Positions 12,856 through 52,938 of a stretch of DNA of 60,000 nt are shown here, piece after piece. Below the pieces are notes generated by a model that was not told the origin of the DNA, searched no databases, and worked only from the letters and a program-made list of their open reading frames with translations. The stretch is from Squalus acanthias (Eukaryota). The translations under genes and the position numbers were made by a program. The stretch is from NCBI GenBank assembly GCA_030390025.1, contig CM059432.1, positions 93,746,001-93,806,000 of the forward strand, read 5' to 3'. Positions within the stretch are counted from its first letter, which is position 1. Each line of letters begins with the position of its first letter.

Positions 12856-12870
12856 CATGATCCGGCTTAC

Positions 12871-19312: not shown

Positions 19313-21703
19313 TGAGAAGTCGCACAACACCAGGTTATAGTCCAACAGTTTTATTTGAAATCACAAGCTTTCGGAGTTACTGCTCCTTCGTCGGGTGAAG
19401 TAAAGAGATACAGAATCGCCAAAGCATATATAGATAGAGAACAATGCATGTGTACCTTACAATGGCAGACAACTAAATTTAATCATCCTGACTGTTTATC
19501 TGCCGAGGTGTGACAAAAGGCAATCAGGTCAGCCAGGAACTTACCACATCAAAGACATAGCAAGATACAACTGAGACAATGAGGTGGAGTCACAGGGGGT
19601 CTAACGTGTCAAAAGCTGCAGTCTGTATGTAAAACGATAAACTTTAAAATTTTTACTTTTTTACTGGGAATCACATCTGTGAACAAGCCAACGACGACTC
19701 GAGTCCGGATCACGTCATGTATCGTGACATAAACCCAAGTTCCCGGTTGAGACCGTCCTCATGAGTGCGGAACTTGGCTATCAGTTTCTGCTCGATGATT
19801 TTGCGTTGTCGTGTGTTCCTAAGGCCGCCTTGGAGAACGCTTACCCGCAGATCCGAGGCTGAATGTCCTTGACTGCTGAAGTGTTCCCCGACTGGGAGGG
19901 AACACTCCTGCCTGGTGATTGTTGCGCGGTGTCCGTTCATACGTTGTCTCAGTGTCTGCATGGTCTCGCCGATGTACCATGCCGCGGTGCATTCTTTCCT
20001 GCAACGTATGAGGTAGACAACGTTGGCCGAGTCACATGAGTATGTACCATGTACCTGGTGGGTAGTGTCCTCACGTGTGATGATGGTATCTGTGTTGATG
20101 ATCTGGCATGTCTTGCAGAGGTTGCCGTGGCAGGGTTGTGTGGTGTCGTGGTCGCTGTTATCCTGAAAGCTGGGTAATTTGCTGCGAACGATGGTACTTC
20201 TGAGGTTAGGCGGCTGTTTGAAGGCAAGTAGTGGAGGCGTGGGGATGGCCTTAGCGAGGTGTTCGTCATCATCGATGACATGTTGAAGGCTGCGAAGAAC
20301 ATGGCGTAGTTTCTCCGCTCCGGGGAAGTACTGGACGACGTAGGGTACCCTGTTGGTTGTGTCCCGTGTTTGCCTTCTGAGGAGGTCTATGCGATTTTTC
20401 GCTGTGGCCCGTCGGAACTGTCGATCGATGAGTCGAGCGTCATATCCCGTTCTTACGAGGGCGTTTTTCAGCGTCCGTAGGTGTCCATCGCGTTCCTCCT
20501 CGTCTGAGCAGATCCTGTGTATTCGCAGGGCTTGTCCATAGGGGATGGCTTCTTTAACGTGGTTAGGGTGGAAGCTGGAGAAGTGGAGCATCGTGAGGTT
20601 GTCCGTGGGCTTGCGGTAGAGTGAAGTGCTGAGGTGTCCGTCTTTGATGGAGATTCGTGTGTCCAGGAATGAAACCGATTCTGAGGAGTAGTCCATGGTG
20701 AGTTTGATGGTGGGATGGAACTTGTTTATGTTATCGTGTAGTCTTTTCAGTGATCCTTCGCCATGGGTCCAAAGGAAGAAAATGTCGTCGATGTATCTGG
20801 TGTACAGCGTTGGCTGGAGGTCCTGTGCAGCAAAAAAGTCTTGCTCGAACTTGTGCATGAAGATGTTGGCGTATTGGGGTGCGAATTTGGTCCCCATGGC
20901 TGTTCCGTGTGTTTGGGTAAAAAAATGGTTGTCGAAGGTGAAGACATTGTGGTCAAGGATGAAGCGGATGAGTTGTAGGATGGCGTCTGGAGATTGGCTG
21001 TTGTTGGTGTTGAGTACTGAGGCTGTCGCAGCGATGCCGTCATCGTGGGGGATACTGGTGTAGAGTGCCGATATGTCCATCGTGGTGAGGAGTGTTCCTG
21101 GTTCAACTGGTCCGTGGGTGCTGAGTTTCTGTAAGAAGTCTGTAGTGTCGCGACAGAAGCTGGGGGTTCCCTGTACGATGGGTTTCAGAATGCCCTCGAC
21201 GTATCCAGAGAGGTTCTCACACAGGGTTCCGTTGCCTGATACGATAGGACGTCCGGGTGTGTTGGCTTTGTGTATCTTTGGGAGGCAGTAGAAGTCTCCC
21301 ACACGGGGAGTACGTGGGATGAGAGCGCGTAGGATGTTTTGAAGGTCTGGATCAAAGGTCTTGATCAGTCTATTGAGTTGGCGGGTGTGTTCTTTGGTCG
21401 GATCTGCGGGTAGCTGTCTGTAGTGTTCCTGGTTGTCCAGTTGTCGGTATGCTTCTTTACAATAGTCCATTCTGTTCTGTATGACGATGGCTCCTCCTTT
21501 GTCCGCTGGTTTGATGACGATGTTGCGGTTGGTCTTGAGAGCGTGGATGGCGTTGCGTTGTGCTCGGGTGACATTCTGGACTGTCTTGTGAGTGCGGCTG
21601 ATGAATCTGGCGTTGATGCATCTCCTGACAGCTTGAGCATACATGTCAAGCTTGGGGCAGCGACCCTCCGGAGGGGTCCAGTTTGACTCTTTTTTCTTCG
21701 GTT
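19313..21703 (-). mobile_element. Penelope-like element family A, 5'-truncated, intact RT + GIY-YIG ORF (19710-21644)
   Basis: Motifs KPADKG, LPKIHK, GTAMG, RYIDD, YRKPT, NVVY...CKEC...YIGET; 10-bp TSD attacagctt at 19303-19312 and 21704-21713. Confidence 0.95.
19361..19398 (-). ncRNA. Minimal type-I hammerhead ribozyme-like motif (U4C core variant) at the 3' end of the Penelope element
   Basis: Minus strand reads UCAC CCGACGA A GGAG caguaa CUCC GAAA GC UU GUGA. Confidence 0.6.
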
Positions 21704-23689
21704 ATTACAGCTTGTAATATCTATCCATACTACTCACTACAAGTTTACTTGCCCTAGCCACCAACACAAATTCACATCACTTCACACCTAAGTACTCATT
21801 ACCCTAATCCCCTCAAATACTCATTGCCCCAATACAATCTATCCACCACCTCACCAAAAATCCTTACTAATTTCCTCCTCCAATTATTTCATTCAATTTC
21901 CAAGCTACTCATTACCTTCCAACTGTTCACTTTCCCAGCCCCCTTAACTGCTCCTACAACTCTTCAAGAATCTATACAAACCCAGCTCCCCTCTCCCAAA
22001 CATCATGACCTCTCATTTATTATGAACAATCCCACAGAGGAACCACTTCTTTACAAAACACCATGTCTTCTAACATCCTGTGAACAAAGCCAAGGGATAA
22101 CAACTAGTGTACACGTGAAATTAAGATTGCATATGGCACATTTTTCCCACCACACTTTGGCACATAGTTGTACCCAATTTGCTGTTTTATGAATGAAATT
22201 TCAGCCACAGATCACAACTGAGCAGGTAGAGAACATACCAATTAGCATGTAGAAAACAGGAATGAAATAAAAACTAATATTTAAAAAAAAACAAATAAAT
22301 GGGCAAATAGCAACAGCTATAAAAAATGGTAGAAGACACAACTGAAAATAAGATTTGTAGCATAATAAATAGGTAAATTATAAAATTTGCAAGAAAATAA
22401 TTAAATTTGGCCACCCGCAATACACCCCAGATGATTTTCCTTTCCATTAAAATCAATGGAATGGAAAATTGGGCGGCTCATGTAACAGGCGGCCAATCAG
22501 CTACCACCATTTTGTGCCCTGCCGAAGTTGAATTTCACCCCAATGTTGGTTGTCTGAGGCCTGGATGTATGTGAAAAGCCTCAATATTGAGTTCATGGAG
22601 GTCCTAGAATCATCGCTCTCAGCTGAAGAGATTCAACAGATTGCAGGGTATAGATTCAGTTCGAACTCTCAACATGCATTTGTGCCTACAACTTGTAGAA
22701 TTTATTTTAATGTTTGACAGCAGGACTGGTCATTCACAAAGCATATGATGACTTGTTATTTGTAAATGCTTTGCCCTCATACAGTCCTGTGTATCAAGGG
22801 GAAAGTACTGCGGATGAAGCCCCCTCAAGAAAGACATTATTAAAGCAATTTGATTTTTTTGTATAAAATATGAGTAATAAGGTAAAGCATCAACTCCAAT
22901 TTTTTTCTGAGTTAACTTTGAAAGCAGAAACAGTGTATGCTATATACTAGCTGATTTTCTATAACTGTCCATTTAAAAAAAATGGAACAACAGCATTTAT
23001 ATCATATAAAATTTGTTTTTCCCCAGTGCTTGAGCACAGAACTTTGAGACGGAGCTGGGTGAATAGCAGTCGGAGTGGAAGCTGAGAATTTGGTGATAGT
23101 CGGAATTTGGCAGAGAGGAGGGAGGCGGTTTCTCACGCCTAACTCAAAAGGAGTGGAGCCGCAGAACCCGAGGATTCTAAGCTAAGTCTAGGCTAATAGA
23201 TAACTAATATTTAGGTTCTTTGGGGGAAAAATTGAGTCGCGCCCCCTTTGGGGTGCTAACTTCGCCGGAGCGCTACTTTTAGCACCCTGAAAAAATTAGC
23301 GCCCCCGCGGCCGAAATTGAATGGTAGCGCCCCAAGAGGGAAGCGGGGTGCTACACCGTAGCGCCACTGCAGGCCTTCCTCCCGTTCTTAAAGGGGAGGG
23401 GCCTGGCACAGCGCGTCCCGGCGCCCAGCTGGGCCACCAGGGATCGGGAGTGCCGTCAAACGAGCCCGGCACTCAAGAGGAGTGCCGGGCTCACGGAGAG
23501 CAGCCGGCACCCTGCAGGGGGTCTTCACGGGGGGCCGGGGACAGCAACGGGGACAGGTGCTGACAGGCGGCCAGCAACAAAAATGGCTGCCCGCCACCTC
23601 CCCTTTAACTAGTGCTGCCCCGGCCGCAGGTAGGCCCCCCTGACCCCGGCGGCCATAGCATCCGGCGGTAAGTCGGGGGGCGCCAGCGA

Positions 23690-23910
23690 AGATCAAGGAA
23701 AATGATTTTGCCAAAGCTATGGTAAATGAGGTTGTTGCCGGGATACTGGATGAGATAAAAATAGATAAAGAGGAAGTACTAGAAAGGCTGGCAGTACTTA
23801 AAGTGGATAAGTCACCTGGTCCGGATAGGTTGAATCCTAGGTTGCTGAGGGAAGTAAGGGTAGAAACTGAGGAGGTGCTGGCCACAATCTTCCATTCCTC
23901 CTTAGATACA
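23690..23910 (+). mobile_element. CR1 fragment
   Basis: LKVDKSPGPDRLNPRLLRE. Confidence 0.8.
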
Positions 23911-24144
23911 AAAGAAAAGACTTGCATTTATATAGCGCCTTTCACGATCTCAGGACATCCCAAAGCGCTTTACAGCTAATAAAATACTTTTGAAGTGTAG
24001 CCACTGTTGTATTGTAGGAAATGCGGCAGCCAATTTTCCACATTACAACAGTGACTACACTCCAAAAGTACTTCATTGGCTGTAAAGCGCTTTGAGACGT
24101 CCGGTGGTCGTGAAAGGCGCTATATAAATGTAAGTCTTTCTTTC
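23911..24144. repeat. Two oppositely oriented SINE 3' tails forming an inverted repeat of about 100 bp
   Basis: agacttgcatttatatagcgcctttcacga... at 23918 and ...tcgtgaaaggcgctatataaatgtaagtct near 24136. Confidence 0.8.
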
Positions 24145-25108
24145 TATGATTCTCAAATACTAATGGCTGCTGCAGTTTTTCACATGGGTTTTCAGGGGGA
24201 GAATTTGGATTGTGTTCTCCCATTTTTCAGGCCTAAATGGGAGTTAAAACAACAAATTTCCCCGCGAGCCAGAAGTGTGCCTGACGCCATATTGCCCATT
24301 AGGCGTCCCTGGTGGCTGCCTGAAAGAAGCAGAGGCATCAATACAATGTTAATAAGGGTCCTGTGCTTGAATCAAAAATTGTGTCTGGCAGGGCATCTTT
24401 TGTCACTTCCGAAGACCACCCAGCAAATCATGGCAGGAACAATTGGGAAGCAAGCTTATTTAAAGGGATCCTCGCCAATGTTCATTCTAATTTTTTCTGG
24501 GTGCGCAGCCCCTTTAACAGGCTGCGTGACCCATTCAAATTTCCACACATGCGCTGTTTTTCCATTTAAAAGCTGGTGAGCTGGCTGCGCGGGACCTCCA
24601 GACAGCTGCACGGCCGCTCAACCACGCAGCTTAACGGGAACATTGATCCTCACTTCCATTAAGGTAAGACTGTGGTTCATCGTTTTAGGTTGCTAGAGTG
24701 CTTTTGGGCTAATTTTTTGGCTGATTTGGCTGTGAAATACATTTGGAGAGTGAGTTTTCGGAGGTGCTGAACTCTTTTACAGGATTGGCTTCAGTAGAAT
24801 TGTTGAACAGGATGATGTTGCTGGGCTTAGCGTTGAGGCTGCCAAATCAGGTGGAAGAGCAGCAGCAAGGAAGGAAGGAAGGCAACAAAGACCCGCAGTG
24901 GCTGCAAGAGGGTGAAGGAGGGAAGTGCGTAGGATGCTTTACAGTATGCAGTCTTCCAAAACAGAACATCATACCTCAACCTCACAGAAGAGCTGTGTGT
25001 AAGGCGATTCTACTTCAACAGGGTGGCAGTGACTCACCTGTGTCACCTGCAGCGACGAGAATTGGAGCCCAGCATCAGCGCATGCAGTGCACTGCCTGTG
25101 GCAATAGA

Positions 25109-25204
25109 AATGAGAAGTCGCACAACACCAGTTATAGTCCAACAGTTTTATTTGAAATCACAAGCTTTCGGAGCTATCGATCGCCCCTTCCTCAGGTGAA
25201 GTGA
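25109..25204 (-). mobile_element. 96-bp Penelope family A terminal fragment containing a hammerhead (25158-25199)
   Basis: TSD gcaataga at 25101-25108 and 25205-25212; UCAC CUGAGGA A GGGGC gaucgaua GCUCC GAAA GC UU GUGA. Confidence 0.8.
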
Positions 25205-25470
25205 GCAATAGAGGTCACCGTGGCTCTAAACTTTTCTGCCTCTAGCTCCTCCCAAACTGTAACAGATGATATTAGTAGCATCAGTCAGTTTGCTGTGCAT
25301 ACGGTGATCAGGCAGGTGATAGATTCACTATTTGTAAGGCACCAATAATTCATTACCTTCCCCACTGATGCTGACAAGCAGAAGGAAAGAACAGTATGAT
25401 TTGCCCGCATTTCTGGATTTTCACAGGTGCAGGGCACATAGACTGCACACATGTAGCCCTGTGTGCTCAT

Positions 25471-28400
25471 TTTAAAAAAAAATTAGTTTTTATGGGATGT
25501 GGGCGTCGCTGGCAAGCCCAGCATTTATTGCCCATCCCTAATTACCCTCGAGAAGGTGGTGGTGAGCTTCTTCTTGAACCGCTGCAGTCCGTGTGGTGAA
25601 GGTACTCCCACAGTGTTGTTAGATAGGGAGTTCCAGGATTTTGACCCAGCGACGATGAAAGATTGGCGATATACTAAGTCAGGATGATGTGTGACTTGGA
25701 GGGGAACTTGGAGGTGGTGGTGTTCCCATGCGTCTGCTGCCCTTGTCCTTCTAGGTGGAAGAGGTCGCGGGTTTGGGAGGTGCTGCCAAAGAAGCCTTGG
25801 CAAGTTGCTGCAGTGCATCTTGTAGATGGTACACACTGCAGCCATGGTACGCCGGTGGTGGAGGGAGTGGATGTTTAAGGTGGTAGAGGGGGTGCCAATC
25901 AAGTGGGCTGCTTTGTCCTGGATGGTGTCGAGCTTCTTGAGTGTTGTTGGAGCTGCACTCATCCAGGCAAGTGGAGAGTATTCCATCACACTCCTTACTT
26001 GTGCCTTATAGATGGTAGAAAGGCTTTGGGGAGTCAGGAGGTGAGACACTCGCCGCAGAATACCTAGCCTCTGACCTGCTCTTGTTGCCACAGTATTTGT
26101 GTGGCTGGTCCAGTTAAATTTCTGGTCAATGGTGTCCCCCAGGATGTTGATGGTGGGGGATTCGGTGATGGTAATGCCATTGAATGTCAAGGGGCGGTGT
26201 TTAGACTCTTGCTTGTTGGAGATAGTCATTGCCTGGCACTTCTGTGGCACGAATGTTACCTGCCACTTATCAGCCCAAGCCTGAATGTCGTCCAGGTCTT
26301 GTTGCATGCGGGCATGGACTGCTTCATTATCTGAGGAGTTGTGAATGGCACTGAACACTGTGCAGTCATCAGCGAACAGCCCCATTTCTGACCTTATGTT
26401 GGAGGGAAGGTCATTGATGAAGCAGCTGAAGATGGTTGGGCCCAGGACACTGCCCTGAAGAACTCCTGCAGCGATGTCCTGGGGTTGTGATGATTGACCT
26501 CCAACCACCACAACCATCTTCCTTTGTGCTAGGTATGACTCCAGCCAGTGGAGAGTTTTCCCCCCGATTCCTATTGACTTCAGTTTTACTAGGGCTCCTT
26601 CATGCCACACTCGGTCAAATGCTGCCTTGATGTCAAGGGCAGTCACTCTCACCTCACCTCTGGAATTCAGCTCCTTTGTCCATGTTTGGACCAAGGCTGT
26701 AATGAGGTCGGCAGCCGAGTGGTCTTGGCGGAACCCAAACTGAGAATCAGTGAGCAGGTTATTGGTGAGCAATTGCCGCTTGATAGCACTGTTGATGACA
26801 CCTTCCATGACTTTGCTGATGATTGAGAGTAGACTGATGGGGCGGTAATTGGCCGGATTGGATTTGTCTTGCTTTTTGTGGACAGGACATACCTGGGCAG
26901 TTTTCCACATTGTCGGATAGATGCCAGTGTTGTAGCTGTACTGGAACAGCTTGGCTAGAGGCGCGGCTAGTTCTGGAGCACAAGTCTTCAGCACGATAGC
27001 CGAAATGTTGTCAGGGCTCATAGCCTTTGCTGTATCCAGTGCGCTCAGCCGTTTCTTGATATCATGTGGAGTGAATCGAATTGGCTGAAGATTGGCTTCT
27101 GTGATGGTGGGGACCGCAGGAGGAGGCCGATATGGATCATCCACACGGCACTTCTGGCTGAAGATGGTTGCAAACGCTTCAGCCTTGTCTTTTGCATTCA
27201 CGTGCTGGGCTCCACCATCATTGAGGATGGGGATAGTCATGGAGCCTCCTCCTCCCGTTAGTTGTTTAATGGTCCACCACCATTCATGACTGGATGTGGC
27301 AGGACTTCAGAGCTTTGATCTGATCCGCTGATTGTGGGATCGCTTAGCCCTATCTATAGCATGCTACTTCTGCTTTTTAGCATGCATGTAGTCCTGTGTT
27401 GCGGCTTCCCCAGGTTGGCGCCTCATTTTTAGGTATGCCTGGTGCTGCTCCTGACATGCTCTTCTACACTCCTTATTGAACGAGGGTTGGTCCCCTCGCT
27501 TGATGGTAATGGTAGAGAGGGATATGCCGGGCCATGAGGTTACAGATTGTGGTGGAATACAATTCTGCTGCTGCTGATGGCCCACAGCGCCTCATGAATG
27601 CCCAGTTTTGAGCTGCTAGATCTGTTCTGAATCTATCCCATTTAGCACGGTAGTAGTGCCACACAACACGATGGGGGTGTCCTCAGTGTGAAGACGGGAC
27701 TTCGTCTCCACAATGACTGTGCAGTGGTCACTGCTACCAATACCGTCATGGACAGATACATCTGCGACAGGTAGATTGGTGAGGACGAGGTCAAGTAGGT
27801 TTTTCCCTTCGTGTTGGTTCTCTCACCACCTGTCGCAGGCCCAGACTGGCAGCTATGTCCTTCAGGACTCGGCCAGCTCGGTCAGTAGTGGTGCTACCGA
27901 GCCACTCTTGGTGATGGACATTGAAGTCCCCCACCCAGAGTACATTCTGCGCCCTTGCTACTCTCAGTGCTTCTTCCAAGTGGTGTTCAACATGGAGGAG
28001 TACTGATTCATCAGCTGAGGGAGGGCGGTAGGTGGTAATCAGCAGGAGGTTTCCTTGCCTATGCTTGACCTGAAGCCATGAGACTTCATGGGGTCCGGAG
28101 TCAATGTTGAGGACTCCCAGGGCCACTCCTTCCCGACTATATACCACTGTGCCGGTGGGACAGGACATACCCAGGGATGGTGATGGAGGAGTTTGGGACA
28201 TTGGCTGAAAGGTATGATTCTGTGAGTATGACTATGTCAGGCTGTTGCTTGACTAGTCTGTGGGACAGCTCTCCCAATTTTGGCACAAGTCCCCAGATGT
28301 TGGTGAGGAGGACTTTGCAGGGTCGACTGGCCTGGGTGTGCCGGTGCTGAGGTCGATGCCGGGTGGTCCGTCCGGTTTCATTTTTATTATTTTGTTTCGT

Positions 28401-28737
28401 AGCGGTTTGTTACAACTGAGTGGCTTGCTAGGCCATTTCAGAGGGCAATTAAAAGTCAACCACATTGCTGTGGGTCTGGAGTCACATATAGGCCAGACCA
28501 GGTAAGGACGGCAGATTTCCTTCCCTAAAGGACATTAGTGAACCAGATGGGTTTTTACGACAATCCGATAGTTTCATGGTTACCATTACTGATACTAGTA
28601 ATTATTCCAGATTTATTTAATTAACTGAATTAAAATCCCCAGCTGCCATGGTGGGATTTGTACTCACGTCTCTGGATCAATAGTCCAGGCCTCTGGATTA
28701 CTAGCCCAGTGACATTACCACTACCCTACCGTTCCCA
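25471..28737 (-). mobile_element. Near full-length non-LTR retrotransposon (CR1/L2/Jockey group, clade unresolved), frameshifted APE endonuclease + 571-aa RT ORF (25525-27240), tRNA-like 5' head, no ORF1
   Basis: VLLTNIWGL...PDIVILTESY near 28315-28205, VGDFN, NYRPISL, DIKAAFD, QGSVLGP, FADD; inserted into the Harbinger transposase. Confidence 0.9.
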
Positions 28738-32512: not shown

Positions 32513-34065
32513 AATAACAACAGAAAACGCTGGAAAAACTCAGCAGGCCAGGCAGCATCCGTGGAGAGAGAAAGAGAGTTAACGTTTCAGGTCGATGACC
32601 TTTCATCAGAACTGGGAAGAGCCGGAAATCAAATAGATTTAAGGCCAGGGTAAAGCTGGGAAAAGGGGGAGGGGATAAAGGAACAAAGGTGGAGATGAAG
32701 AGACATTAAGAGACATTAAGAGATATGCAAGGCTAGAGGTGGTGTTAATGTGACAGATTAAGGCTGAATGAAGTGTGAAATCCACTGGCAGAATGAAGGA
32801 CAGCTGCCAGCTTCTAGGAGGAAAAAAAAGGTGGGGGGGGACAAATAAAAGGGTGGATAAAATAAAATATAAATGTGATTGGAGCTGAGGTTATGATCTA
32901 AAATTGTTGAACTCGATATTGAGTCCAGAGGGCTGTAGCGTGCCTAAACGAAAGATGAGGTGCTGTTCCTCGAGCTTACGCTGAGCTTCCGTGGAACAGT
33001 GTAATAGGCCGAGGACGGTGAGGTCAGAGTGGGAGTGAAGCGGTGAATTAAAGTGACAGGCCACCGGGAGCTCGGGGTCCCCCTTACGGACTGAACGGAG
33101 GTGTTCCGCAAAGCGGTCACCCAATCTGCGTTTGGTCTCCCCAATGTAGAGGAGTCCACATCGTGAGCAGCGAATACAGTATACTAAATTGCAGGAAGTA
33201 CAAGTAAATCGCTGTTTCACCTGGAAGGGGTGTTTGGGGCCCTGGACAGTGGGAAGAGGGGAGGTATAAGGGCATGTGTTGCATCTCCTGCGCGTGCACG
33301 GGAAGGTGCCGGGCGAAGGGGAAGGGGTGCTGGGGGTGGTAGAGGAGTGGACTAGGGTGTCGCGGAGGGAGCGGTCCCTACGGAATGCTGAAAAGGGAGG
33401 TGAGGGGAAGATGTGTTTGGTGGTGGGATCACGCTGGAGGTGGCGGAAATGGCGGAGGATGATCCGTTGAATGTGGAGGCTGGTGGGGTGAAAGGTGAGG
33501 ACAAGGGGAACCCTATCGTGGTTCCGGGAGGGAGGGGCAGGGGTGAGGGCAGATGTGCAGGAGATAGAACGGACACGGTCGAGGGCCGTGTCGACCACGG
33601 TAGAGGGGAATCCTCGGTTGAGGAAAAAGGAAGACATGTCGGAAGCACTGGTATGGAAGGTGGCATCATCAGAGCAGATGCGGCGGAGACGGAGAAACTG
33701 GGAGAATGGAATAGAGTCCTTACAGGAGGCGGGGTGGGAGGAAGTGTAGTCCAGGTAGCTGTGGGAGTCGGTGGGCTTGTAGTGAATGTTAGTCAATAAC
33801 CTATCCCCAGAGATGGAGATGGAGAAGTCGAGGAAGGGAAGGGAAGAGTCGGAGATGGACCATGTGAAGGTGAGGGAAGGGTGGAAATTGGAAGCATAGT
33901 GAATGAAATGTTCTAGTTCAGGGCGAGAGCAGGAGACGGCACCGATACAGTCATCAATGTACCGGAAAAAGAGGTGAGGGAGGGGACCCGAGTAGGACTG
34001 GAACAAAGAGTGTTCCACATATCCCACGAAAAGGCAGGCATAGCTAGGACCCATGCAGGTACCCA
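32513..34065 (-). mobile_element. Penelope-like element family B, 5'-truncated, RT C-half + GIY-YIG open
   Basis: MGPSYACLF, RYIDD, HYKPTD, NLVYCIRCSRCGLLYIGETKRRLGDRFAEH; stop at 32891; possible TSD tacccaa at both ends. Confidence 0.92.
32577..32613 (-). ncRNA. Minimal type-I hammerhead ribozyme, canonical core, in the 3' region of Penelope family B
   Basis: AGUU CUGAUGA A AGGUC auc GACCU GAAA CG UU AACU: stems I and II pair fully and stem III is the palindrome AACGUU. Confidence 0.8.
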
Positions 34066-35267
34066 ATTGGGATTGCCAAGCAGCATCATTGACAGGGTAA
34101 CCTAGGGCCGAGCGCCCCGACACGAGGGAACCCCATAAAAATTGGCGACCGACGGCAGGACAGGCAAATAACAAGGCGAAGTAGCCATAGCAGAATCCCT
34201 TCGGGTTGTAAAGGGTTATAACCTAACTCCTGGCGGAGGAAACTAGTTTAGTGGACTCGGAATGAGGGCAATGTGCTACGTTCTGACAATTAAGGAGCAC
34301 AGGTAAGATAGGGGAATCCGACTGGATCCACCAATATGAGGAGGTAGTCAAAGGTAGTGTAGGTAAGGCGCTGATCCTGGTAATGTCTAAAGCAGACAAA
34401 CCATACAAGGAAGGGTGTGGCCATGGATGCCAGAACAGGTCAGAGCTAAGAACTAAAACCAGGCAAGAAAGCAAGACATTTGTGCAGATATGCTAAGTGG
34501 TTTCTGTGCAGTTAAAAATTAAGACAAGGATAAAAATTTAAAGGTAGAAATGACAGCAGAAGTGCCAGAGCGAATGCGAGAAAAGGGAACTACAGCAGTC
34601 AATCGAGAGCTTTTGCTTATGAATCACTGAGTTAAGTGCTATGTTAGGAAACCAAACAGCACGAGTGAACTTAGCAGCCAGGCAAAGATCAGAGCAGGCT
34701 GCACTGGAGTGCCAGAGAGAGAAGCTGAAAAATGAGAAAAGTTAAAATAGCAGTTAGAAGATGCAAGAGGGGTGCTGAGGGAAGAGTCAGAAAGGAATAA
34801 GGAAATGGGTAAACCTGACCATCGACCATATCAGATGCAAATAGAAATGTTCAGGAATCATTTGGGGCAGAGAACGGCTATGGTATAGGCAGTAACCCGA
34901 GGAAGTTGCGGTTTTGAAGGTATGAGATTGATTGGGGAGCGTTGGAGGATGCGGCATATCACTATCATGATGATGATCATCCTCCTAAGGTGCACAGGAA
35001 AAAGGTAGAAGTGGTGTACCACAGGGGTTCTCAACCGTTTTGCTTCTGAGGCCCCCTTCCTGTGTTATAAAAATTCCATGGAACCCCTGTAGCACAAAAC
35101 AACAATAACTTGCATTTATATACGCCTTTAATGTAGTAAAACGTCCCAAGGTACTTCACAGCGTTAACAAACAAAATTTGACACCGAGCCACATAAGGAT
35201 GACCAAAGAGGTTGGTTTTAAGGAGAGTCTTGAAGGAGGAAAGAGAGGCGAAGAGGTTTCGGGACGG

Positions 35268-35341
35268 AAACGTTAACTGTTTCTCTCTGCACAGATGCTG
35301 CCTAACCTACCGAGTATTTCCAGCATTTTCTGTTTTTGTTT
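35268..35341 (+). repeat. Truncated Penelope family B 3' terminus (only the GAAACGTTAACT half of the hammerhead)
   Basis: Similar to the reverse complement of 32519-32588. Confidence 0.65.
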
Positions 35342-36983
35342 AGGTCAAGTAACAAGTCAATCTCAGGAGGAGCGCCCGATCACCCACGTAGAACAGCAGG
35401 TGATGGCGCAAGAGCTAGGTCCGATTAGAGATGGGAGGGACCATTAGAACTCGCTCAGACATTCAGGGTCTTTATCCAGGGTCATCCTGAACTTGGCGAT
35501 CTGGATCTTAAGTGCATACTATTGTATGGCTCGAGTCCAGATCTCAAGGCACGGTTGGAACCAGTGGTCTTTGCTGCCGCCACCAACTCTCAAACTGCAA
35601 TGGATGCCATTTATGCAATGCTGGGAATTGGCCAGATAGATGTTTATGGTGTGATCGGTAGATGTGCACAAGGACAGCAAGAACACCCACAGGCATTTGA
35701 GCAAAGATTGCACAAGCTGTACGTTATGTCCCAGCTGCTGGCCCCAGTAGAGAACAATTATCACAATCAGCAGGGATATCAGAATTTGTTCCTCTCAAAG
35801 TTGACCCTGAAAGTTAAAATCGCCCCGGGAGTGGTACTGAATACAAAAAGTGCATGGGCCACAATCATTGTCGCTGTACTTCAGGCACATCAGAATGTAC
35901 AAGCCTTTGGGCCCGGAGGGGAGAATACCGGAGCGAAGCCCAGGGTGAAGTATGAGGTCCATATGGTCGAGGGTCTGTACCCTTTGAGGGCTAGTGGGCA
36001 CAGCAGGGGTCAAGGTAGACAAGAGGGCTATGGCGCCTAACCAGGGAGCAGAAATCACCCTATTGAGGAAGGATGTTTAAACTGTGCTAAACAGAGACAC
36101 TGGGCAAGGGATTGCTGAAGCGCACCCTGCTCGATCCAGGGGTTGAGGAGGTCCAGGACCGAGAATCAACTACCCTCCTCCCTACCATCCCCCACAGATC
36201 AAAAATTGGAGAAACTAATTGCATTATTGGCTGCTCAGCAATTAACAGGGTGGGGGGGCCTCCCAATGGGGCACCCCAAGGTAAATGTAAACAATATCTG
36301 ATTCCCACTGAGAGCCATCCGTATCAACAGGAGCAAAATGCGAGCCATCAGGGTTCAATCGCGCTGAATTCACCAATTTGGTTGGTAAAGAAACCAGGTG
36401 GCAGTTGGTGATTAACAACTAATTACATGAAATTGAACTCCGCACCCGTTGGAGATATCGAGGGTCTTTTCGACCCTCGATATCTCCAATGGATTCTGGC
36501 GTGTCCCAGTTCACCCAGAGGATCAATATAAGTTTGCATTTACTTTCAACGACCAACAATACACCTGGACATGTTTGCCACAGGGGTTCCATAACTCCCC
36601 TATAATCTTCCACAAATGCATGGTGTTTATATTGAAGGGATATTCTCACTCAGTCGGTTCTACAATATGTGGATTACATTTTGATTGCCACCCAGACGTG
36701 AGAACAACATCTGATGTTCTGGACAGACTAAAGACGGCCGGTCTAAAGATCAATCCCAAGAAAGCTCAGCTACAACAATCAAAAGTATCTTTTCTGGGGC
36801 TCGTGCAATGGAAAGAAGCCTGACACACACAAGGTGGACATTATACAGAGGCTACCACTGCCAGTGACAAAGACAGCTTTCCAGTCATTTCTGGGGCTCG
36901 TGGGGTAACAACGATCATTCACCCTCACCCCACAGCTTGCAGCACTCGCTAAGCCGTTATATGACTTATCCAAGGGAGATGAT

Positions 36984-37371: not shown

Positions 37372-37442
37372 AGATGATGACTCAGTTCAGCGGGATTAGA
37401 CGGACATACCAATGCAGTAACCAAGCTGAAGCAAGTGGTTGC

Positions 37443-39925: not shown

Positions 39926-39929
39926 GTAT

Positions 39930-40748: not shown

Positions 40749-40773
40749 ATATATATATATATATATATATATA
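40749..40773. repeat. (AT)n microsatellite next to a C12 run
   Basis: Visible directly. Confidence 0.9.
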
Positions 40774-43700
40774 AATATTGGATAACAATAGCTTCTGTTT
40801 TAAAGACACAAAACATCTTAGGCTTGAGGCTGATCAAACAGTTAAGCTTTCCACTTATAAAAGGCTGATTTTTCTGACCCATTCCCCGGCACAAACATCA
40901 GGGGAAAAAGGGGTGCAGACCCATAATGCTCGGTCTCTGTCCCCTTTATGGTGCCTTGAGGAGGAGGGGATGTGGAGCTAGATTAGTATGATAGGAGGGG
41001 GTATTTCCACCTCTTTCTCCTGTTGCTGTTTCCATGGGACACCACAAGAAGCTAGTTGAGGGCATGTACTGGGATTTCCCTCAGGCTGGAGAATTTGGAG
41101 GGGGGAGGCTGCAAGCCGAAGAGGATCCCTCAAGTTGGAATACCAACTCTCAGGCCTACAGCTGCTCTCCTTAATCCTGTCCAGTTTTCCAGCGCTAGGC
41201 CCTGCAAGCATTCAGGCCTGCGCTAGGAGTGTCCCCAAGCTAAGTTAATGGCAGGTGGCATGAAGTCCAGTGCACTTCGGCTGTGATGCTCCTGTCCAGC
41301 ACTGGGGAAAGGAGAGTGGGGGCCAGGAAAATTGGCCACATGTTATCTCAAACCCTAGAAGCACCTCCTGTATGTGTTAAAGGGAGTGTATATATGAGAG
41401 AAAGAAAGAAATTGCAACATAGTTCCAGTGTGATGCTACATTTAAGCAATTAGTGGAATGAACAGCATTCTGAACAATTAAGTTCAGAGTTGATGGATTG
41501 GGAGTTACGGTCAGGTCTTATTATGTGGACCTTTAAGAAAATACATGTTTTGTGACTTCAGTTATATCTTTATATGTCCAGATCTTTCATTTCATTATTT
41601 TGTCTTACGATGGCTGTTTTTTATAGTTTATTTTTAAAGGAAGAAATGACTCGTATTTAAACAGTATCTTAACATGTTGCTCAGAAACTTCTCAAAACAC
41701 TTCACACAATGAATTATATTAAAGTGCAGTCATTGTTATTATGTAGGCAAACTGAAAATTAAATCGAGTAGTGTGAAACTTGGTCACACTGTACAGCTTG
41801 TAACAATTGAAGATAACTCTGAACGCAGTCATCGCACTACACTACATACACTGTAAAAATATTATACATGTACAGTATATGAACACACATGCCACTAAAT
41901 AGTCATGGGGTAGATCTTTGTGTGATAGTGTTAAATGGGTGATAGTGAGTCGGCAGCCCATTTCACATCTCTCCCTATTTTTATTTCCATTGTTAATGGG
42001 GGCTGAGCCGATAGCCAGTTTTACACCATCATCCAAAGGCGTAATTACCCACAACGTTTTACGAGTCAACCAGAATCACCGACTGAGATATTTGTTCCTA
42101 TCTTCCCCAAAAAGGAATTAAAAGGTATTCTTGTAACTTTACATGCATTAGAAATCATATTATAGTGGCTTCTTTTAGAGGATTTACACAGCATGACAAA
42201 CTAATATAGACAATAAATAAGGGAAATAGAAACAGCTGTGGTGGTGGTTGGGGGTATAAGACAGGTCAGAAATTAAGAGGATAAGCTGGCAAAATGAAAA
42301 TGAATCCAATAGCCTAGAAGGAAAACGCAGGCTGATACCAATGTCTGTTCTGTGTTAACTTGGAATTTTCTATGTTAAAACTGTTCCCTCTACAGACGCT
42401 GACCGATTTGCTCAGTGTTTTAACCATTTTTTGTTTTTATCCCTTATTAAACTGCGCTAACTTTTGCAAAAATACCATTGGTGAGTGTTAGGAATATGGC
42501 ATGTGCCAAATTAATATCAGGTCAGGTCAAGGAGTTACTGACAGTCCCTGTGGGATAGATGAATTTACATTTGTCTTTGCAGTCAGGAATTATGCTGGCC
42601 CAGCAAGGTCAATCAGCTCTGATTCGCATCACAAAAATGGTATAATTACCAATATCCCTGGGCTTAGAAATTAATTGACGCTGCACTCATTTTACAGGTG
42701 TCTAAGCCCTAAGTGTCCAATATGGCGGGTGGCATGCGTGTGCACATTCCACGTCAGAAGTGCGCTACCCGCCATATTAGTAAAGGCTGAAGAATAGGCA
42801 TCCAAGGCCCATGCCTGAAACAGGCGACAGTCCCTTTGCATAAGCAAATAGGAGTCTTAATGCCTGTTTCAGGACCCCCTTCTCGAAATTGGGCTGCCCT
42901 AATTGCAAACAGTGCCGGGCAACCAAGTCTACACGTGGCCTAACCAGTGGTTCTTCAAGGAACCGTTGGAGGCCACCACCAAAAAGATGAGTGTAATAAA
43001 AAAAATACTTATCTGAATGTGAAGCCGGGAGGAGCAGCAGTCCCGAAGACAATCACTGGGCCCTACCCAATCGCCTCTACCCCTCCCTGATTGTGCCCCC
43101 CTCCACCCACCCGATCGCCTTCAACCCTCCCAGAACCTACCTGAGGGCTGCAGTCGGCAGTGGCCCAAAATTTATATCTGCTTCGCTGGCAAGCTGCCTG
43201 GGGCGCGCAGAGGTAGTCCGCAGCACGTCTGTCAAATTTAAACAAGTCCCAATATTGGGTGCAACTCAGGCCTACCCATTCCAGTGCTGGGATTGATCCC
43301 TGTGCCCAGTTTGCGCCACCAAGCTGCTGTTATCCAATTTCACCCCCACGATGTCTGAAATGTACATTCTATTTCTATAAATGGTATTACAGTTTTGTGT
43401 TATTTTGAACAAAAAACTGTTGATTTTTAGATTAATGATGAAAGAGAAGGCAAGTTTGGTAACCAAGTATAGCATGTACACTGGGAAGCTTTTTAGGGAC
43501 TGCCATTTATTTTACAATATTGTGCTATCTAATATAAATGTATAGGAGCATATGCTGTACTTGAAACATCTATGCATGGTAATGTTTTACACTGAAGACA
43601 CACAAGCAATTTAAATAAATTATGAAAAAATCATTAAAATAAAAGCCATATTTATCATCAGTAATAGCTTAGTGGTTGAACTTTACACCGTTCTTTTGAG

Positions 43701-43884
43701 ACTCCCGCAGCTTTTCTAAACACACGGTGTACAATCGGGAAAACTGCCACAAAGTTCAGCTCCATAGTATTTATTAAGTGATTTTAAATAACATTTGACA
43801 TAATTATTCTAAAAGAATTTCTGAATATTTTAACAAAATACAATACTGCAGGTTAGGTTATCAAACAGAATACGACACAGCAGT

Positions 43885-45129
43885 GTGTTATGCCTTTACC
43901 ACTTTTATTTCACCATGAAGAAACATACATTCAACATTTATTACATTGCAGCAGAAAATTTGATGAAAGTATTGTACCCTACAGTTAGCTGTGTGGTCTT
44001 CTGTAAATCATAAATGCTTCATGATTTGAAAGCTTTCAATGGGGTTTGCTATTTTATGTTTAGTTTAAGGCTTTGCTCTGAATCTGGAGTCTACGCAGAG
44101 TGTTTAAAAAGAATCAATGCCGTCATAGTCAATGATGAAAAACAAGAAGTCACAGGTAGTAAACAGAGAGAATCCTTCTAGAGCAGACACATTCGCTAGC
44201 AACATAAACCGAGCAAAACAGGCTCAGTTTAAAAAGGAATACTGAAGTCTCTTCTAAGGGAAGTCAACATATACGACTAACGATGGACTACTCTACCTGG
44301 CCTTTTGGTTCCAATGTAAAAGAATGTGCTCATCTAACAAAACCAAATCAATCATTCAAGTAAAATATATATTTATATATATATTTCTTTAAAAAAAATC
44401 TGTTAGGTAACGTCAAATTATGCTGACAAAGCACAAGATGCAGCAAAACAACTTGTTCTAAACTGTTTAAGGTTATTCATGTTTTCACAGGCATTACCAT
44501 TGTATATCAAGGTTTCCAGTTATAAGCTTCAACTTGCTTAGTATGATAATAGATATGGGCTTACATCATTGGCACATCTACTGTAAGGTATGACATAATC
44601 CCTCAATACAATTAACATTTTTCACCAGCTTTGGGGTGAAAGTTACTTGTTTATAAATGAAACCAGGTACAATTAAAATGAATTACTGCCAACTTAATAT
44701 CTCGCTCAGCTATAGTTTTTTTTAAACTGGCAAAGGCAGGATTTTCCCTCTGTTTCGTTTAAAACATTAGTGTTCCAATGTATCCTTTGCTGTTTGAACG
44801 TGCTGATAAAATGATAACTTAAGAGAAGTGGACGCTTTACTATATGGATTTGGAAAATGCTTTTCTCTTTATTCCTTTTATGACAAAGGTTTATTCTAAT
44901 CATGCAATATTCATCTGCCGTTTGGATATGCTGGAATGAGAAGGTTTTTTGCCAATGTTCTTATTTAGTGAGAGGGTCCTCATACAACGTGCTCCAGTAT
45001 GCTTGACGTGAAAGGTCATTAGTGGATGGATTCAGGACAAATGAAGTCATGTATATGACTCCATTTAGACTTCAAAATCATTCCTAATGATGTGTATGCA
45101 TTACTTCTTTTGTGAAGATGTGGTTACTC
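43885..45129 (-). other. EPB41L3: Probable EPB41L3 terminal non-coding (3'UTR) exon
   Basis: Acceptor ttcattttccttcccag| at 45130; repeat-poor AT-rich sequence; minus-strand AATAAA at 43937-43942 and 43904-43909 followed by a GT-rich tract. 3' end approximate. Confidence 0.65.
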
Positions 45130-48100: not shown

Positions 48101-48328
48101 GCATTGTTCATTTCAATATTCACAATATTTTAATGCAGATAAATTATATATTTAAGTAAACATTATATCCCATTACTTGTAACTGTTAGCAGAGCATCCC
48201 AAAGCACTTGCCTATGGGTTATAGAGTTAAAAGCTGCAAATTAAAATCAAAGGTGTGAGGAGTGCGCTAAAGGTACTGCACAGCAGCTTGTAAAATACCA
48301 GGCGGATGCTGTTTGTTCTTACCTGCGG

Positions 48329-48439
48329 TCAATCATCTCCGTCTTCCGGTGTGATCTCTGTCTCTTTGTGTACCACTACTTTGGTCACAGACATATCAGG
48401 GTGCTGCTCTTTGGCCTCTTTAATTGCCTGAGCCAGGGC
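48329..48439 (-). CDS. EPB41L3: EPB41L3 last coding exon [36 protein letters not shown]
   Basis: Acceptor at 48440-48441, TGA at 48329-48331, donor CAG|GTAAG 6 nt after the stop (exon ends 48323). The ETEITPEDG ending and adjacency to ZBTB14 indicate paralogue L3. Confidence 0.95.
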
Positions 48440-49124
48440 CTAACCCAAAGAAAGCCCCCGAGGTATAAAAACAGTAGGTGGGACATGCATGATCAGAAGC
48501 AGGATGGAGAATTATGATTTTTTTTTCTCAATTACTTTATTGATGGAAATGATTAAAAGAAAATTTTAAAATTTCTACTAGAAGGAGCAGTACGTCATAC
48601 ATTTGTATGCTAAATGTATATATTTTCAACTTGACCTCATCCCTCGAGGGTGTGGATTTTGTTTTTGTTCAATATTGATATAGGGCAGTGGACTGTTCAA
48701 CCAGTTAGTTCCACCAGCTTCTGTGCTCACTGTGGCACAACAGGTAAGCTTGTGGCCTCAGTCGCAGGACTCTGCCTTGGCAGTGGCATTAGGTCAGTGT
48801 AGCTGGAGCTGCCCCCAAACTGCAGCTAAGGCTCATGAGTCGATTTAAAAAAGTGAATTTTGAAAGTAATTTCTTTATTATGTTCATGGTTTTAGTCACA
48901 AACTCATTCTGTTAAATGAATCTACCAACAGAGGTACCATGCTATGACATACAGCTCCTTTAACCTGAAATGCAGTTGCTGAATTAAATTACAAAACATG
49001 CAGATTTTAATTTCTTCTGGCGAGTAGAGTTTCCGAACACTACATTTGTCTTTTAAATATATAAGCCATTTTTACTTAACAACTCATTTAGATGCAGTGC
49101 GTCCACAGTTAAGTGTTAACGTAC

Positions 49125-49205
49125 CTGATCATGGTCAATGTCAGCATCTCCTGTAATAACAATTCGTTTCTCAATGCGTGTTTCTGAAACTCCTCCTTTC
49201 ACAGT
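49125..49205 (-). CDS. EPB41L3: EPB41L3 coding exon TVKGGVSETRIEKRIVITGDADIDHDQ
   Basis: 81 nt, AG/GT boundaries, highly conserved 4.1 C-terminal domain. Confidence 0.96.
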
Positions 49206-49334
49206 CTATAAACAGGAAGTTGAATACAGTTAGTCACTTCAAGTTTAGATAAACTCATATTACAACTAGCTTACTGGGTAAATTTACTGGCTGGTTTTGT
49301 ACAAAGTCATCGGATCCAGGTTCTAGTGTGCGCT

Positions 49335-50352
49335 AAATTAGGGTTGAATAACTCCAATATTCTTCCTACAGTTGGGGTGTCCAGTACTGCATGCAATACT
49401 CCACTGTAGCCTAACCAATGTCTTGTACAAATTCAACATCACTTCCTTCAAAGCCCCTATGCATAAAACCAAAAATCCCATTTGCCTTTTTAATGGCCTT
49501 TTCCACCTGCACTTCTACTTTTCAAAGGTCTGTGTATCAGCATGACTAGATTGCCCCAGCCCTCCATTCTGTAAAGAGTCTTACCATTTAGGGTTTACTT
49601 CCTTTCAATGTAATTATTTCCAAGATGTAAAAAGTCACTGATTTGCCCACTCCGCTCACCTGTCTTTGTCCTTCAGCAATCTTACTTAGAGTTTACCATG
49701 ACTCCTAATTTGCTATCAGCAAACTTCAAAATCATTCCTCTTGTGCCAATGCCCAAATCATTTATATAAATTGAAAACAAAAGAATTCCCAGCACAGATC
49801 CCTGCGGAACTTCACTAACCATATCCTGCCAAAACATCCAGTTAGCCTTAATCTTTGCTCCCTGTTCTCGACATCTCTCTTTCCATGCAACTATGCTACC
49901 TTTAATACCGAGTCCCTTAAGTGGCACCTTATGAAATACATTCTAAAAAACCATAAAACACAACATCCACCACATTCCCTTATCAATACACTTTGTGATT
50001 TCCTCCAAAACTTCAATTTGTCAAGCACGACCTGCACTTTACAAATCCATGCTGACTGTTCCTGATTAGCGCCATGCTGTTCTAAGTGTTGACTAATTTT
50101 ATCTCGCATTATAGATTCTAGTTTATCCACAACTGAGATAAAACTAAGTGGCTTATAATTTCCTGGCTCATCATTTTCCCTTTTTTGAGGGGTGTAACAT
50201 TTACCTTTCTCCAATTGCTTGGCACAATTCCTGTTTCCAAAATTTTTTGGAAAATTATGGTTAGTGCCTCTGCTATCTCCTTCCCAAATCTCTTCAGCAT
50301 TCTGAGATGCATACCTTCTGGCCTTGGTTATTTTTCTACCTTCAAGTTCCAT
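49335..50352 (-). mobile_element. Degenerate CR1 LINE
   Basis: [25 protein letters not shown] in shifted frames. Confidence 0.85.
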
Positions 50353-51003
50353 TATTTTTTTCTAAATAGAGAATATTCTTTTGAATACTTATCTCTAGTA
50401 CTAGCTCTTCTACTCCTCAGCTATTCCAAGGGGCAGATTTTAAGTCACTCCACTGTGTGGAAACGGGCAGCAGTGGCCCAAATATTACTCTGCTGTACTT
50501 ATTGCCCCATTTCTGTCGGCTGCCAATTTTCTGGAGGTGTCTACATGGGCGGCCAAGGCACCCATCTGCTTCAGGTGAAAGTTTCATTCCAATAAGCTAA
50601 TTGGGGTCCTATGACTTATATGGGACCCCAAGGCAACGTACGCTTCACCCATGGCACTAGGCATCAGTTCTCAAAGGGACTGCTGCAGCCCTCTCATGAA
50701 AAAGCTAAGTTTTTTTTTTACTTTGATTTTTGTGGGACCAGGTGGAGCCACCAGAATTCCCACTCCCCCGACTGGTGAGCTGCTTCTGCCTTCCTGAACA
50801 ACACTCGCCGCTCACTGGGGTTATGGTGATCAGGCCCAGCCATCAAAATCACTTGGGCATTATGGTGATGACATCAGGCAGGTAGTACAATCACACCACT
50901 TGCCTGACATCTGCCGTGTCTAAAAACAACTCCCTATAATTCCACTGTCGGCCTATAAAAAGCAGCAAAATGAATTTTAAAAATATACTGACCACTTCCA
51001 AGG

Positions 51004-51005
<2 letters not shown>

Positions 51006-51036
<31 letters not shown>
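51006..51036. repeat. (GT)n microsatellite
   Basis: Visible directly. Confidence 0.95.
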
Positions 51037-51038
<2 letters not shown>

Positions 51039-51416
51039 GTCAAAAATGAAGTGAAAGAAAACCGGCACAAAATGGAGTCTCTGGGTAAGCAGTGGAGCGG
51101 CAGAGTTTTGTTTGATAGTTTGAGATGTATGTGCCGCATGAGATTGGTGTGAGGAGGGTTGTCCTATTTAGCACTTCAGGGCAACCTTCCCAGAGGATGG
51201 TAGTGGATCATTCCTGGCAACAGATGATCACCAGATTCAATGCTGTGTACACTACCTGCAGGACTTGAGAACAGATGCACAAGATAATGGCACATTTTAA
51301 AGTGTGCAGATACACTGCTTTTTAAAGATGGCAGCACGATTGGATAAGGGCTTTAAAAGAAGCAAGTGGGATCCTTGGTTTTGTATCTAGAAACATAGAA
51401 TACAAAAATGAAGAGG

Positions 51417-52275
51417 TATCATATTTCTGGATTTTTTGATCATTTTAATTTTGAGATTGCTTTAAAGGGGTTAAATTCACTGGACAACGTGATTCGTAGG
51501 TGTGTATTGAGTTTCAGACGGGCATCCAAAATGAGCTCCCTGAAGATAATGAGGGAGAGTTTGACATTCCAGCAACTGTTCACACTCATTGCTGCTGTGG
51601 TAATCCTATACATTTTAACTAAGCAGTTAGGCTAGTGGACTCTGCTCAGCGGGAGGGGATGTGGGTAGTCAGTTTAACGGCTGACACTGCAAACAGGCTT
51701 TTAAATAAAGCAGAACACAGACACCAAGGAAGGTAGTCTGGTTTTTGGAACAGGGCTTCACGAGCAGTCAGACAGCAAAAGGAGAGTGGTTCTGCCCCGG
51801 GAGTATAGGACAGAATGCAGAGAGACTATTCTGTTTCAGTCAGACAACCCAAAAAGTGACATAGCGTTACATGTTCTTTTATCATTACGCAAACGTAAGA
51901 TGTATTGATTGAACAAAGCAACTCTGATTATACTTTTTAGTCAGTACATTTTACCTTAGTGTGGGATAAAGCAGTTTACAAATTGAACCAATTTATGCCT
52001 CATCTAGCGTTAACTCAGTCTGCGGTCATAGAGATTGAAGAAATACACATCCGTAAGACACAGCGATCCGATCCAGATCTTTATTGTTATACAGTACTGG
52101 GACCAAAGAGTGTAATTAGATATAGAGCAGTGTAAGTTTGGATCTTCTGTAGATACTTCCTCGGGTTCAGTGGTGTCAGTTGCTCCTGTAAGTGGCCTGA
52201 CCACCCATAAAGTAAGAAGCTCAGATCAATTTCGGGAGCAATTGACACCACTGAAATCAAGAAGTTATCGTAACA
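51417..52275. mobile_element. About 860-bp LTR-like insertion splitting a CR1 fragment
   Basis: CR1 sequence stops near 51416 and resumes near 52276; insert ends gtaaca; TSD degenerate. Confidence 0.4.
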
Positions 52276-52700
52276 GAAGGCAATGTTGAACTTGTATAAG
52301 TCCTTAGTTAAGCTGCAGTTTGAGTATGTTGTACAGTTTTGGGCACCTCATTATAGGAAGGATGTAAAATGGAAAAAAATGCAGTGCAGATTCACAGGAT
52401 GTTACAAGGAGTTACAGTTATGATGACTGACTTTGAAAGTTAGGACTTTTTCCATTAGAGCTTTGAAAGTTAAAGGATAATCTACTAGAGGATGTCAAGA
52501 TTATGAAGGATTACAATAGGATAAATAGATTGTTTCCACTGGTCGATGAGATGACACAATTGTAAGATAATCACAAAGAACTAAGGAGAGTTTAGAAAAC
52601 ATTTCTTTACAGAAGATGGTTAAAAAGTAGAATTCCTGGCCACAAACAGTTGTTGAAGCAGAATCTGGTAAGTTATGATTAACTGACAGTACCATGTATT
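52276..52700 (+). mobile_element. Degenerate CR1 3' fragment (continues from about 51340-51416)
   Basis: LYKSLVKLQFEYVVQFWAPHYRKD-like sequence. Confidence 0.7.
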
Positions 52701-52710
52701 GGGTAGATAG

Positions 52711-52938
52711 AATTGAGAGGTCGCACAACACCAGGTTATAGTCCAACAGTTTTATTTGAAATCACAAGCTTTCGGAGCTATCGATCGCCCCTTCCTCAGG
52801 TGACTTCACCTGAGGAAGGGGCGATCGATAGCTCCGAAAGCTTGTGATTTCAAATAAAACTGTTGGACTATAACCTGGTGTTGTGCAACCTCTCAATTTT
52901 GTCCACCCCAGTCCAACACCGGCATCTCCGCATCTTGA
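52711..52938. mobile_element. Penelope family A inverted terminal-repeat insertion with hammerheads at 52762-52803 (-) and 52806-52847 (+)
   Basis: 93-bp arms (52711-52803 and 52806-52898), one mismatch, 2-nt spacer; TSD gtagatag at 52703-52710 and 52939-52946. Confidence 0.85.

Follow-up and report, generated by a model that had tools for sequence, protein, structure and literature searches.

The window analysed here, a stretch of 60,000 nucleotides from the shark Squalus acanthias (GenBank assembly GCA_030390025.1, contig CM059432.1, positions 93,746,001 to 93,806,000 of the forward strand), carries five minimal hammerhead ribozyme motifs that belong to two families of Penelope-like elements (PLEs), referred to as A and B (Table 1). 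A preliminary description, made from the letters of the window, had located these motifs and proposed that both families use self-cleavage to process their RNA. The assignment to minimal hammerheads of two PLE families is borne out by a descriptor scan and by the reverse transcriptase (RT) and GIY-YIG coding context, and the proposed role is not supported. At a probability of roughly 0.6, the motifs are read here as minimal type-I hammerheads in the pseudo-long terminal repeats (pLTRs) of the two families, likely slow ribozymes that need a partner or an element protein, with the reverse-transcribed RNA being nearly always uncut.

Table 1. Hammerhead motifs, host elements and associated features in the window (ORF, open reading frame; TSD, target-site duplication; Inr, initiator; sites 1 and 2 are the two fixed ends of family-A insertions)
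Feature	Position	Strand	Details
Family A minimal hammerhead	19361..19398	-	U4C core CCGACGA, extra A9.1, stem II GGAG/CUCC, palindrome AAGCUU; predicted cut between 19365 and 19364
Family A minimal hammerhead	25158..25199	-	Core CUGAGGA, stem II GGGGC/GCUCC
Family B minimal hammerhead	32577..32613	-	Core CUGAUGA and an additional A; A10.1-U11.1 in stem II AGGUC/GACCU; palindromic AACGUU; cut predicted between 32581 and 32580
Family A minimal hammerhead, left arm of fold-back insertion	52762..52803	-	Arm ends at site 1
Family A minimal hammerhead, right arm of fold-back insertion	52806..52847	+	Tail-bearing arm, starting at putative +1 A (52803); cut predicted between 52843 and 52844
5'-truncated family A PLE	19313..21703	-	96.7% identical to the L194 unit; 10-bp TSD at 19303-19312 and 21704-21713; 3' end at site 1, no tail
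Open 663-aa ORF	19710..21701	-	RT and C-terminal GIY-YIG-type domain, C-X4-CxxC linker, N-terminus missing; RVT_1 match; shark homologues
Putative pLTR promoter and start site	19401..19432	-	TATATATG at 19425-19432, starting 31 nt before Inr-like A at 19401
AATAAA just 3' of predicted cut	19350..19355	-	Possible poly(A) signal, shared by all four family A copies
94-nt solo mini-copy	25109..25202	-	From putative +1 A to site 1; 8-bp TSD at 25101-25108 and 25205-25212
5'-truncated family B PLE	32514..34065	-	Encodes the C-terminal half of RT, a C-X4-CxxC linker and GIY-YIG, with a stop at 32891; TSD not resolved
Head-to-head fold-back insertion, single event	52711..52934	.	12-bp TSD with one mismatch at 52699-52710 and 52935-52946
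Family B-type terminal remnant	35254..35344	+	3' half of motif only (GAAA-CG-UU-AACU), no intact hammerhead

Hammerhead motifs and their host elements

When the window was scanned with a descriptor (core CYGANGA, stems I and II of at least 4 bp), exactly five matches were returned, and these are the five motifs described before, with the same coordinates, strands and stems. The minimal palindromic motif appeared in 0/200 dinucleotide shuffles of the window, and any type-I motif in 2/200. All five motifs have a 4-bp stem I, an extra A after A9 and a stem II of 4-5 bp, and helix III is replaced by A-GC-U or A-CG-U. The statement that all of them fit CUGANGA holds for four; the motif at 19361-19398 has the core CCGACGA, a U4C variant that is seen at 12 distinct loci. 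The 42-mers at 25158, 52762 and 52806 are identical, and the window content amounts to four insertions with three distinct motif sequences. An Rfam search of the window gave 13 matches up to an E-value of 10, none of them a hammerhead, and the motifs do not conform to the canonical full hammerhead, as defined by the Rfam models and a stable helix III. A sixth, canonical-looking hammerhead with a GUC site, at 42780-42837 on the forward strand, was rejected: of 30 related loci, only the one in the window combines CUGANGA with GUC, so this is a chance resemblance inside an old, high-copy palindromic repeat (519 candidates).

In both coding elements, as had been noted, the motif lies on the sense strand downstream of the ORF, 311 and 277 nt past the stop codon. 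L194, a near full-length copy of the tandem family-A unit, measures 3,136 bp and its ORF begins ~92 nt past the predicted cut, so that the motif sits in the pLTR, with the stop codon of the preceding unit on one side and the start codon of the following unit on the other. This location, in the pLTR of an element encoding RT and GIY-YIG domains, is that of the minimal hammerhead ribozymes (min-HHRs) of PLEs. The family-A ORF has its closest homologues among shark proteins (80-93% identity); families A and B share 31% protein identity, yet have the same hammerhead fold. A C-X4-CxxC linker precedes the endonuclease in both ORFs, and the GIY-YIG profile score of the family-B element is 20.9 bits, under the cut-off of 22.6. 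A CX2-5CxxC linker before a C-terminal GIY-YIG domain is given as a trait of the Neptune and Nematis clades (PMC8557442), and by linker and domain order both families appear to be Neptune-like Penelope elements. The microsatellite insertion bias hypothesised for Neptune is not seen in family A, whose targets are 70% AT TSDs with CAG-rich flanks and no simple repeats. The family-A 3' end is also present in sequence runs of several other organisms, which points to a family common to related species.

Stem covariation, core conservation and abundance

The preliminary description had also claimed that pairing is kept while the sequence changes. Genome-wide, the claim stands: for the 37 motif variants that recur at a minimum of two loci, pairing holds in 98.8% of 333 stem cells, and in at most 41.7% once the partners are slid as a control. 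Within the window, with its three distinct sequences, covariation comes down mainly to one comparison between the two families. Changes on both sides are found in 8/9 stem pairs, a count that is equalled by 159/500 shuffles and that comprises mostly the changes separating family A from B. Compensatory changes within family A are CG to UA at stem I pair 3 (I.3) and CG to UA at stem II pair 5 (II.5), and the U4C motif of the window has a C-A intermediate at II.5. The palindromic A-GC-U or A-CG-U is present in 37/37 recurrent variants, which were parsed under that requirement. The variants also share with the min-HHRs an unpaired nucleotide between A9 and 10.1 and a helix I of 4-5 bp. The G10.1-C11.1 pair is found in 27/27 variants of family A, and family B has A-U (6) or G-U (4) at this place.

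Core conservation was assessed in copies from loci picked without a hammerhead query (86 of family A and 45 of family B). In family A, no recurrent variant occurs at 10/11 core positions, U4 alone varying, compared with 16/24 variable spacer positions (p 0.002), and N7, loop II and H17 vary freely. Stem covariation and core conservation across subfamilies are clear in family A and weaker in B, and their best reading is a motif that is under selection, with the core kept in master lineages.

The 3.71-Gb genome was searched with exact patterns and no pairing enforced, which misses mutated copies and makes the counts lower bounds. The family-A CUGANGA pattern has 23,155 matches, the family-A CCGANGA (U4C) pattern 3,392 and the family-B pattern 28,832, and the reversed control of each pattern has 0; the resulting total of at least 55,379 exact matches, or 14.9 per Mb, confirms the high density of motifs that had been proposed for this genome. 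About 0.9 motifs are expected per 60 kb, and the window is somewhat rich. The tails 3' of the motif occur 53,277 (family A) and 49,352 (family B) times. At two loci (L225 and L226; G000:C1:6988000-7060000), family-B motifs recur on one strand, ~1.6-1.7 kb and 3.3 kb apart, and the DNA between them holds no PLE ORF; a tandem array or a segmental repeat is possible.

Inserted copies run across the predicted cut

The first 100 matches of a 29-mer downstream of the family-A cut were collected without a hammerhead query. Of these copies, 98/100 extend at least 10 nt beyond the cut, and only 1/100 has its 5' end within -10 to +4 of it. The 5' ends accumulate 29-47 nt upstream of the cut (30/100), at a rate 5.8-fold that of the following 83 nt (p 5e-9), and a further 11/100 junctions lie at 12-28 nt. 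As nearly all inserted copies cross the predicted cut, the RNA that is copied probably does not owe its form to self-cleavage.

In a larger set of 299 motifs, part of them chosen through hammerhead queries, the modal junction is an A located 7 nt before C3, that is, 3 nt before stem I (22/138 junctions within 44 nt), and the counts fall beyond ~12 nt before C3. The element TATATATG starts 30-32 nt upstream of the modal A in 154/161 long copies. A G stands ahead of 16/22 junctions at the modal A, and neighbouring positions are also G-rich (9/13 and 6/9). In the window, the mini-copy at 25109 and the right arm of the fold-back insertion at 52803 start at the modal A. These motifs and junctions suggest that family-A transcription may start at the modal A, at a TATA/Inr-like site 3 nt before stem I. 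No GT-AG joint indicating an intron across the motif was found in four sets of fragmented contigs, which gives no evidence either way.

The 3' ends of the same 100 family-A copies fall at two sites (60 and 39 copies), the remaining one running on into the ORF; these fixed ends are ~+55 and ~+93 from the cut. Among 66 inverted pairs, 58 have a TSD of 10-17 bp, and a site-1 arm is joined to a site-2 arm in 58/58; a second set gives site 1 with site 2 in 26/26 (one locus repeats the first set). TSDs of family A are mostly 12-14 bp long and 70% AT. CAG stands directly outside the TSD in 65/116 half-sites compared with 22/116 farther out, and in 29/52 compared with 5/52 in the second set. The target preference is thus bipartite and roughly palindromic, an AT-rich 12-14-bp TSD between CTG and CAG. 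Many family-A insertions recur at the same spots of other repeats, which we take to be CR1-type long interspersed nuclear elements (LINEs).

The transcript of the fold-back insertion is predicted to form a perfect hairpin of ~100 bp (-192 kcal/mol) that buries both motifs. The motifs at 52762 and 52806 were considered as dimer partners and rejected, as they are the sense and antisense arms of one insertion, complementary to each other, and would form this hairpin instead. In family A, the hammerhead fold of the monomer equals or nears the predicted energy minimum, with unremarkable folding z-scores (-0.5 to -1.5). According to folding energies, an approximate trans double-hammerhead is less stable than the alternatives for all three window sequences.

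The U4C lineage

U4C accounts for 12.8% of family-A matches and for 10/80 unselected full motifs, and occurs in several loop-II subfamilies. In a tree of 52 copies, built from the upstream 600 nt and rooted by midpoint only, 13/52 rows are U4C, three changes are needed, and U4C forms a grade that gives rise to the young CUGAGGA subfamilies. The simplest reading of this midpoint-rooted tree would be a gain of U4C followed by reversion to U4. The reversion was rejected as proof of selection on account of CpG decay, possible recombination between subfamilies and the midpoint root: C4-G5 is a CpG, so decay to U4 is favoured mutationally and reversion is possible without selection. U4C greatly reduces activity in vitro but allows infectivity in a viroid (Perreault 2011, PMC3088659). 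That a U4C lineage has reached 3,392 copies indicates that an intact core is not required for spread.

Interpretation and alternative explanations

The chemistry of hammerhead cleavage is established, as is dimer or protein-assisted cleavage in related PLEs. The preferred explanation is a predicted ribozyme near the 5' end of the transcript that would be slow, probably protein-assisted, and selected yet dispensable for insertion. Transcription would begin at the TATA/Inr-like site, and the hammerhead would make up the first ~40 nt of the RNA and appear again after the ORF. RT would be primed on both strands of a staggered target cut, with a TSD of mostly 12-14 bp, would begin internally at two sites and would often run off at or near the RNA 5' end, producing mini-copies of 90-140 nt and fold-back pairs; the tens of thousands of dispersed motifs would then be dead by-products of insertion. 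Since the core appears to be kept by selection in master lineages, cleavage probably acts occasionally or later. It would then strip the capped 5' leader from the RNA, or the poly(A) signal if the cut falls in the downstream copy, and in this way damp or retire the element RNA. A bolder version, which we put forward tentatively and regard as doubtful, makes the hammerhead, as the first 40 nt of a capped transcript, a tunable self-decapping brake (with removal of the poly(A) signal at the 3' copy) and not a means of template processing. Its strength would have been dialled down and then up in one lineage (U4 to C4 to U4), and the genome record would consist of cap-run-off mini-copies, tens of thousands in number, in strict site-1 and site-2 pairs, inserted where a dimeric endonuclease cuts a bipartite CTG-N-CAG target.

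Several observations weigh against the preferred explanation. The unselected copies all come from the first 8 Mb of one contig, and the two arms of a fold-back cannot count as separate samples. Among 117 family-B copies, junctions are scattered across the motif (18-43 nt), and the first base of stem I is a weak mode. Up to 4/117 copies break at the cut or no more than 2 nt from it, including two internal deletions (L278 and L300) with their right edge at the predicted cut, which is a small hint that cut RNA was copied. The excess core conservation seen in family A does not reach significance in family B (45 copies; 1/11 variable core positions compared with 10/25 in the spacer, p 0.07). The Penelope element of D. 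virilis is described as having a TATA-less internal promoter (PMC2377424). In addition, the start site of family A is placed by sequence motifs and junctions, and 5' ends could accumulate in much the same way if RT stalled in the hammerhead fold.

The last of these objections can be extended to a full alternative, in which the preferred explanation holds otherwise and the 5' pile-up reflects RT stalling or template switching in the hammerhead stems and not a transcription start. The junctions that fall across the motif (those at 12-28 nt in family A and the spread in family B) and the common microhomologies between fold-back arms fit this alternative, whereas the mode, at canonical TATA spacing, falls 3 nt outside stem I, and junctions become fewer beyond ~12 nt before C3; the G before most modal junctions is what a copied cap would give, a weak argument given the G-rich neighbouring positions. 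We consider stalling a possibility, although a minor one. According to the first reading of the window and to Cervera, dimeric self-cleavage would release unit-length RNA from tandem or read-through transcripts, and that RNA, perhaps circularised, would be the template. The palindromic stem III, the conserved core and the tandem units with a motif at each end agree with such a route, as do the 2-4/117 family-B copies that break at the cut and the low dimer cleavage of related motifs in vitro (PMC4209133), and a religated circle would likewise read through the cut. A circle would not, however, predict a pile-up of 5' ends 29-47 nt upstream that drops beyond; the near absence of family-A 5' ends at the cut and the folding energies, by which the active dimer is not the lowest-energy state, also speak against it, and we judge this route unlikely.

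It is more improbable that the motif has lost its ribozyme activity here and persists as a passenger, or because it serves the promoter or RT-loading region as a structural or protein-binding element. A loss of function would accommodate the persistence of U4C through several subfamilies, an H17 that is mostly U, the lack of G10.1-C11.1 in family B and the conservation of the sequence 3' of the motif, which is about as high as that of the core; hammerheads possibly parasitising PLEs have been raised before (Craig 2021, PMC8557442). However, the positions without variation coincide exactly with the catalytic set (C3, G5, A6, G8, A9, G12-A15.1 and U16.1), while N7, loop II and the stems change with compensation in two families as divergent as A and B. 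U4C is, moreover, a tolerated natural variant in a viroid (PMC3088659), and a related PLE hammerhead cleaves with protein (PMC11167929).

Comparison with known hammerheads of PLEs

The motif class itself is known. The min-HHRs in the pLTRs of metazoan PLEs (Cervera and De la Pena 2014, PMC4209133) share with the motifs described here the type-I topology, the lack of helix III, the palindromic 15.2-16.2, the extra nucleotide after A9, the 4-bp helix I, and the occurrence of dispersed truncated copies, some on opposite strands. A lamprey motif in that study has the same stem I (UCAC/GUGA), and a turtle motif has the same GC-UU end. The at least 55,379 exact matches in S. acanthias compare with ~4,000 copies in coelacanth and ~9,000 in Xenopus (PMC4209133). 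G10.1-C11.1 is reported there as highly conserved, yet it lies outside the descriptor requirements, and family B has A-U or G-U at 10.1-11.1; the part of the supplement searched holds no shark and no U4C. Small PLE hammerheads with a diminished stem III and dimer cleavage were described by Lunse, Weinberg and Breaker (RNA Biol 14:1499), according to a review (PMC6765202).

The Poseidon element of Anolis carolinensis is a close parallel. Its hammerhead cleaves only with protein, and core mutants have no effect on insertion in vitro (Frangieh 2024, PMC11167929). Poseidon RT extends both strands of the target, its two start sites flank the tail, and a protein dimer is predicted (PMC11167929). Two internal RT start sites bracketing the tail, extension on both target strands, an uncut RNA template and an AT-rich target are features that Poseidon shares with family A as read here. 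In contrast, the Poseidon hammerhead overlaps the start codon with RT starting 111-118 nt into the ORF (PMC11167929), whereas here ~92 nt separate the cut from the downstream ATG, and insertions extend no farther than the ATG; the families here also carry a Neptune-type linker. Inverted pLTRs, a tail at one end and TSDs are known for Penelope elements of Adineta vaga, in which TSDs are 8-10 bp long (Arkhipova 2013, PMC3846280) and not mostly 12-14 bp. The strict pairing of site 1 with site 2 and the CAG flank preference were not found in the text consulted of PMC3846280 and PMC8557442. Non-LTR retrozymes (bioRxiv 10.64898/2026.07.22.740005) likewise consist of non-coding, hammerhead-bearing sequence from PLE pLTRs, but they form head-to-tail tandem arrays, whereas the mini-copies of the window are single or head-to-head and flanked by TSDs, and do not qualify as retrozymes.

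No literature on hammerheads in shark PLEs or on U4C in PLEs was found by a search whose scope excluded Lunse et al. and one supplement of PMC4209133, which may hold cases. With that scope, the genome-scale evidence against template cleavage and the U4C lineage, neither of which was found in the literature searched, constitute a modest addition. The more than 50,000 copies form a natural record that bears on hammerhead function in PLEs, and this record agrees with one in vitro study in that the template is uncut and an intact core dispensable. It also offers testable handles, namely the predicted start 3 nt before stem I, the two putative RT start sites and the target preference, and natural U4 and C4 alleles exist in near-identical young elements.

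Other features of the window

A decayed family B-type terminal remnant without an intact motif is present at 42374-42443 on the forward strand. A 593-aa open RT frame of a non-LTR retrotransposon (RVT_1) occupies 25525-27306 on the reverse strand, and several further LINE fragments and a GC-rich tandem array at ~11860-12890 are also found. At 1891-3246 on the reverse strand lies a single-exon ORF of 451 aa with BTB and C2H2 zinc-finger domains, presumably resembling ZBTB14.

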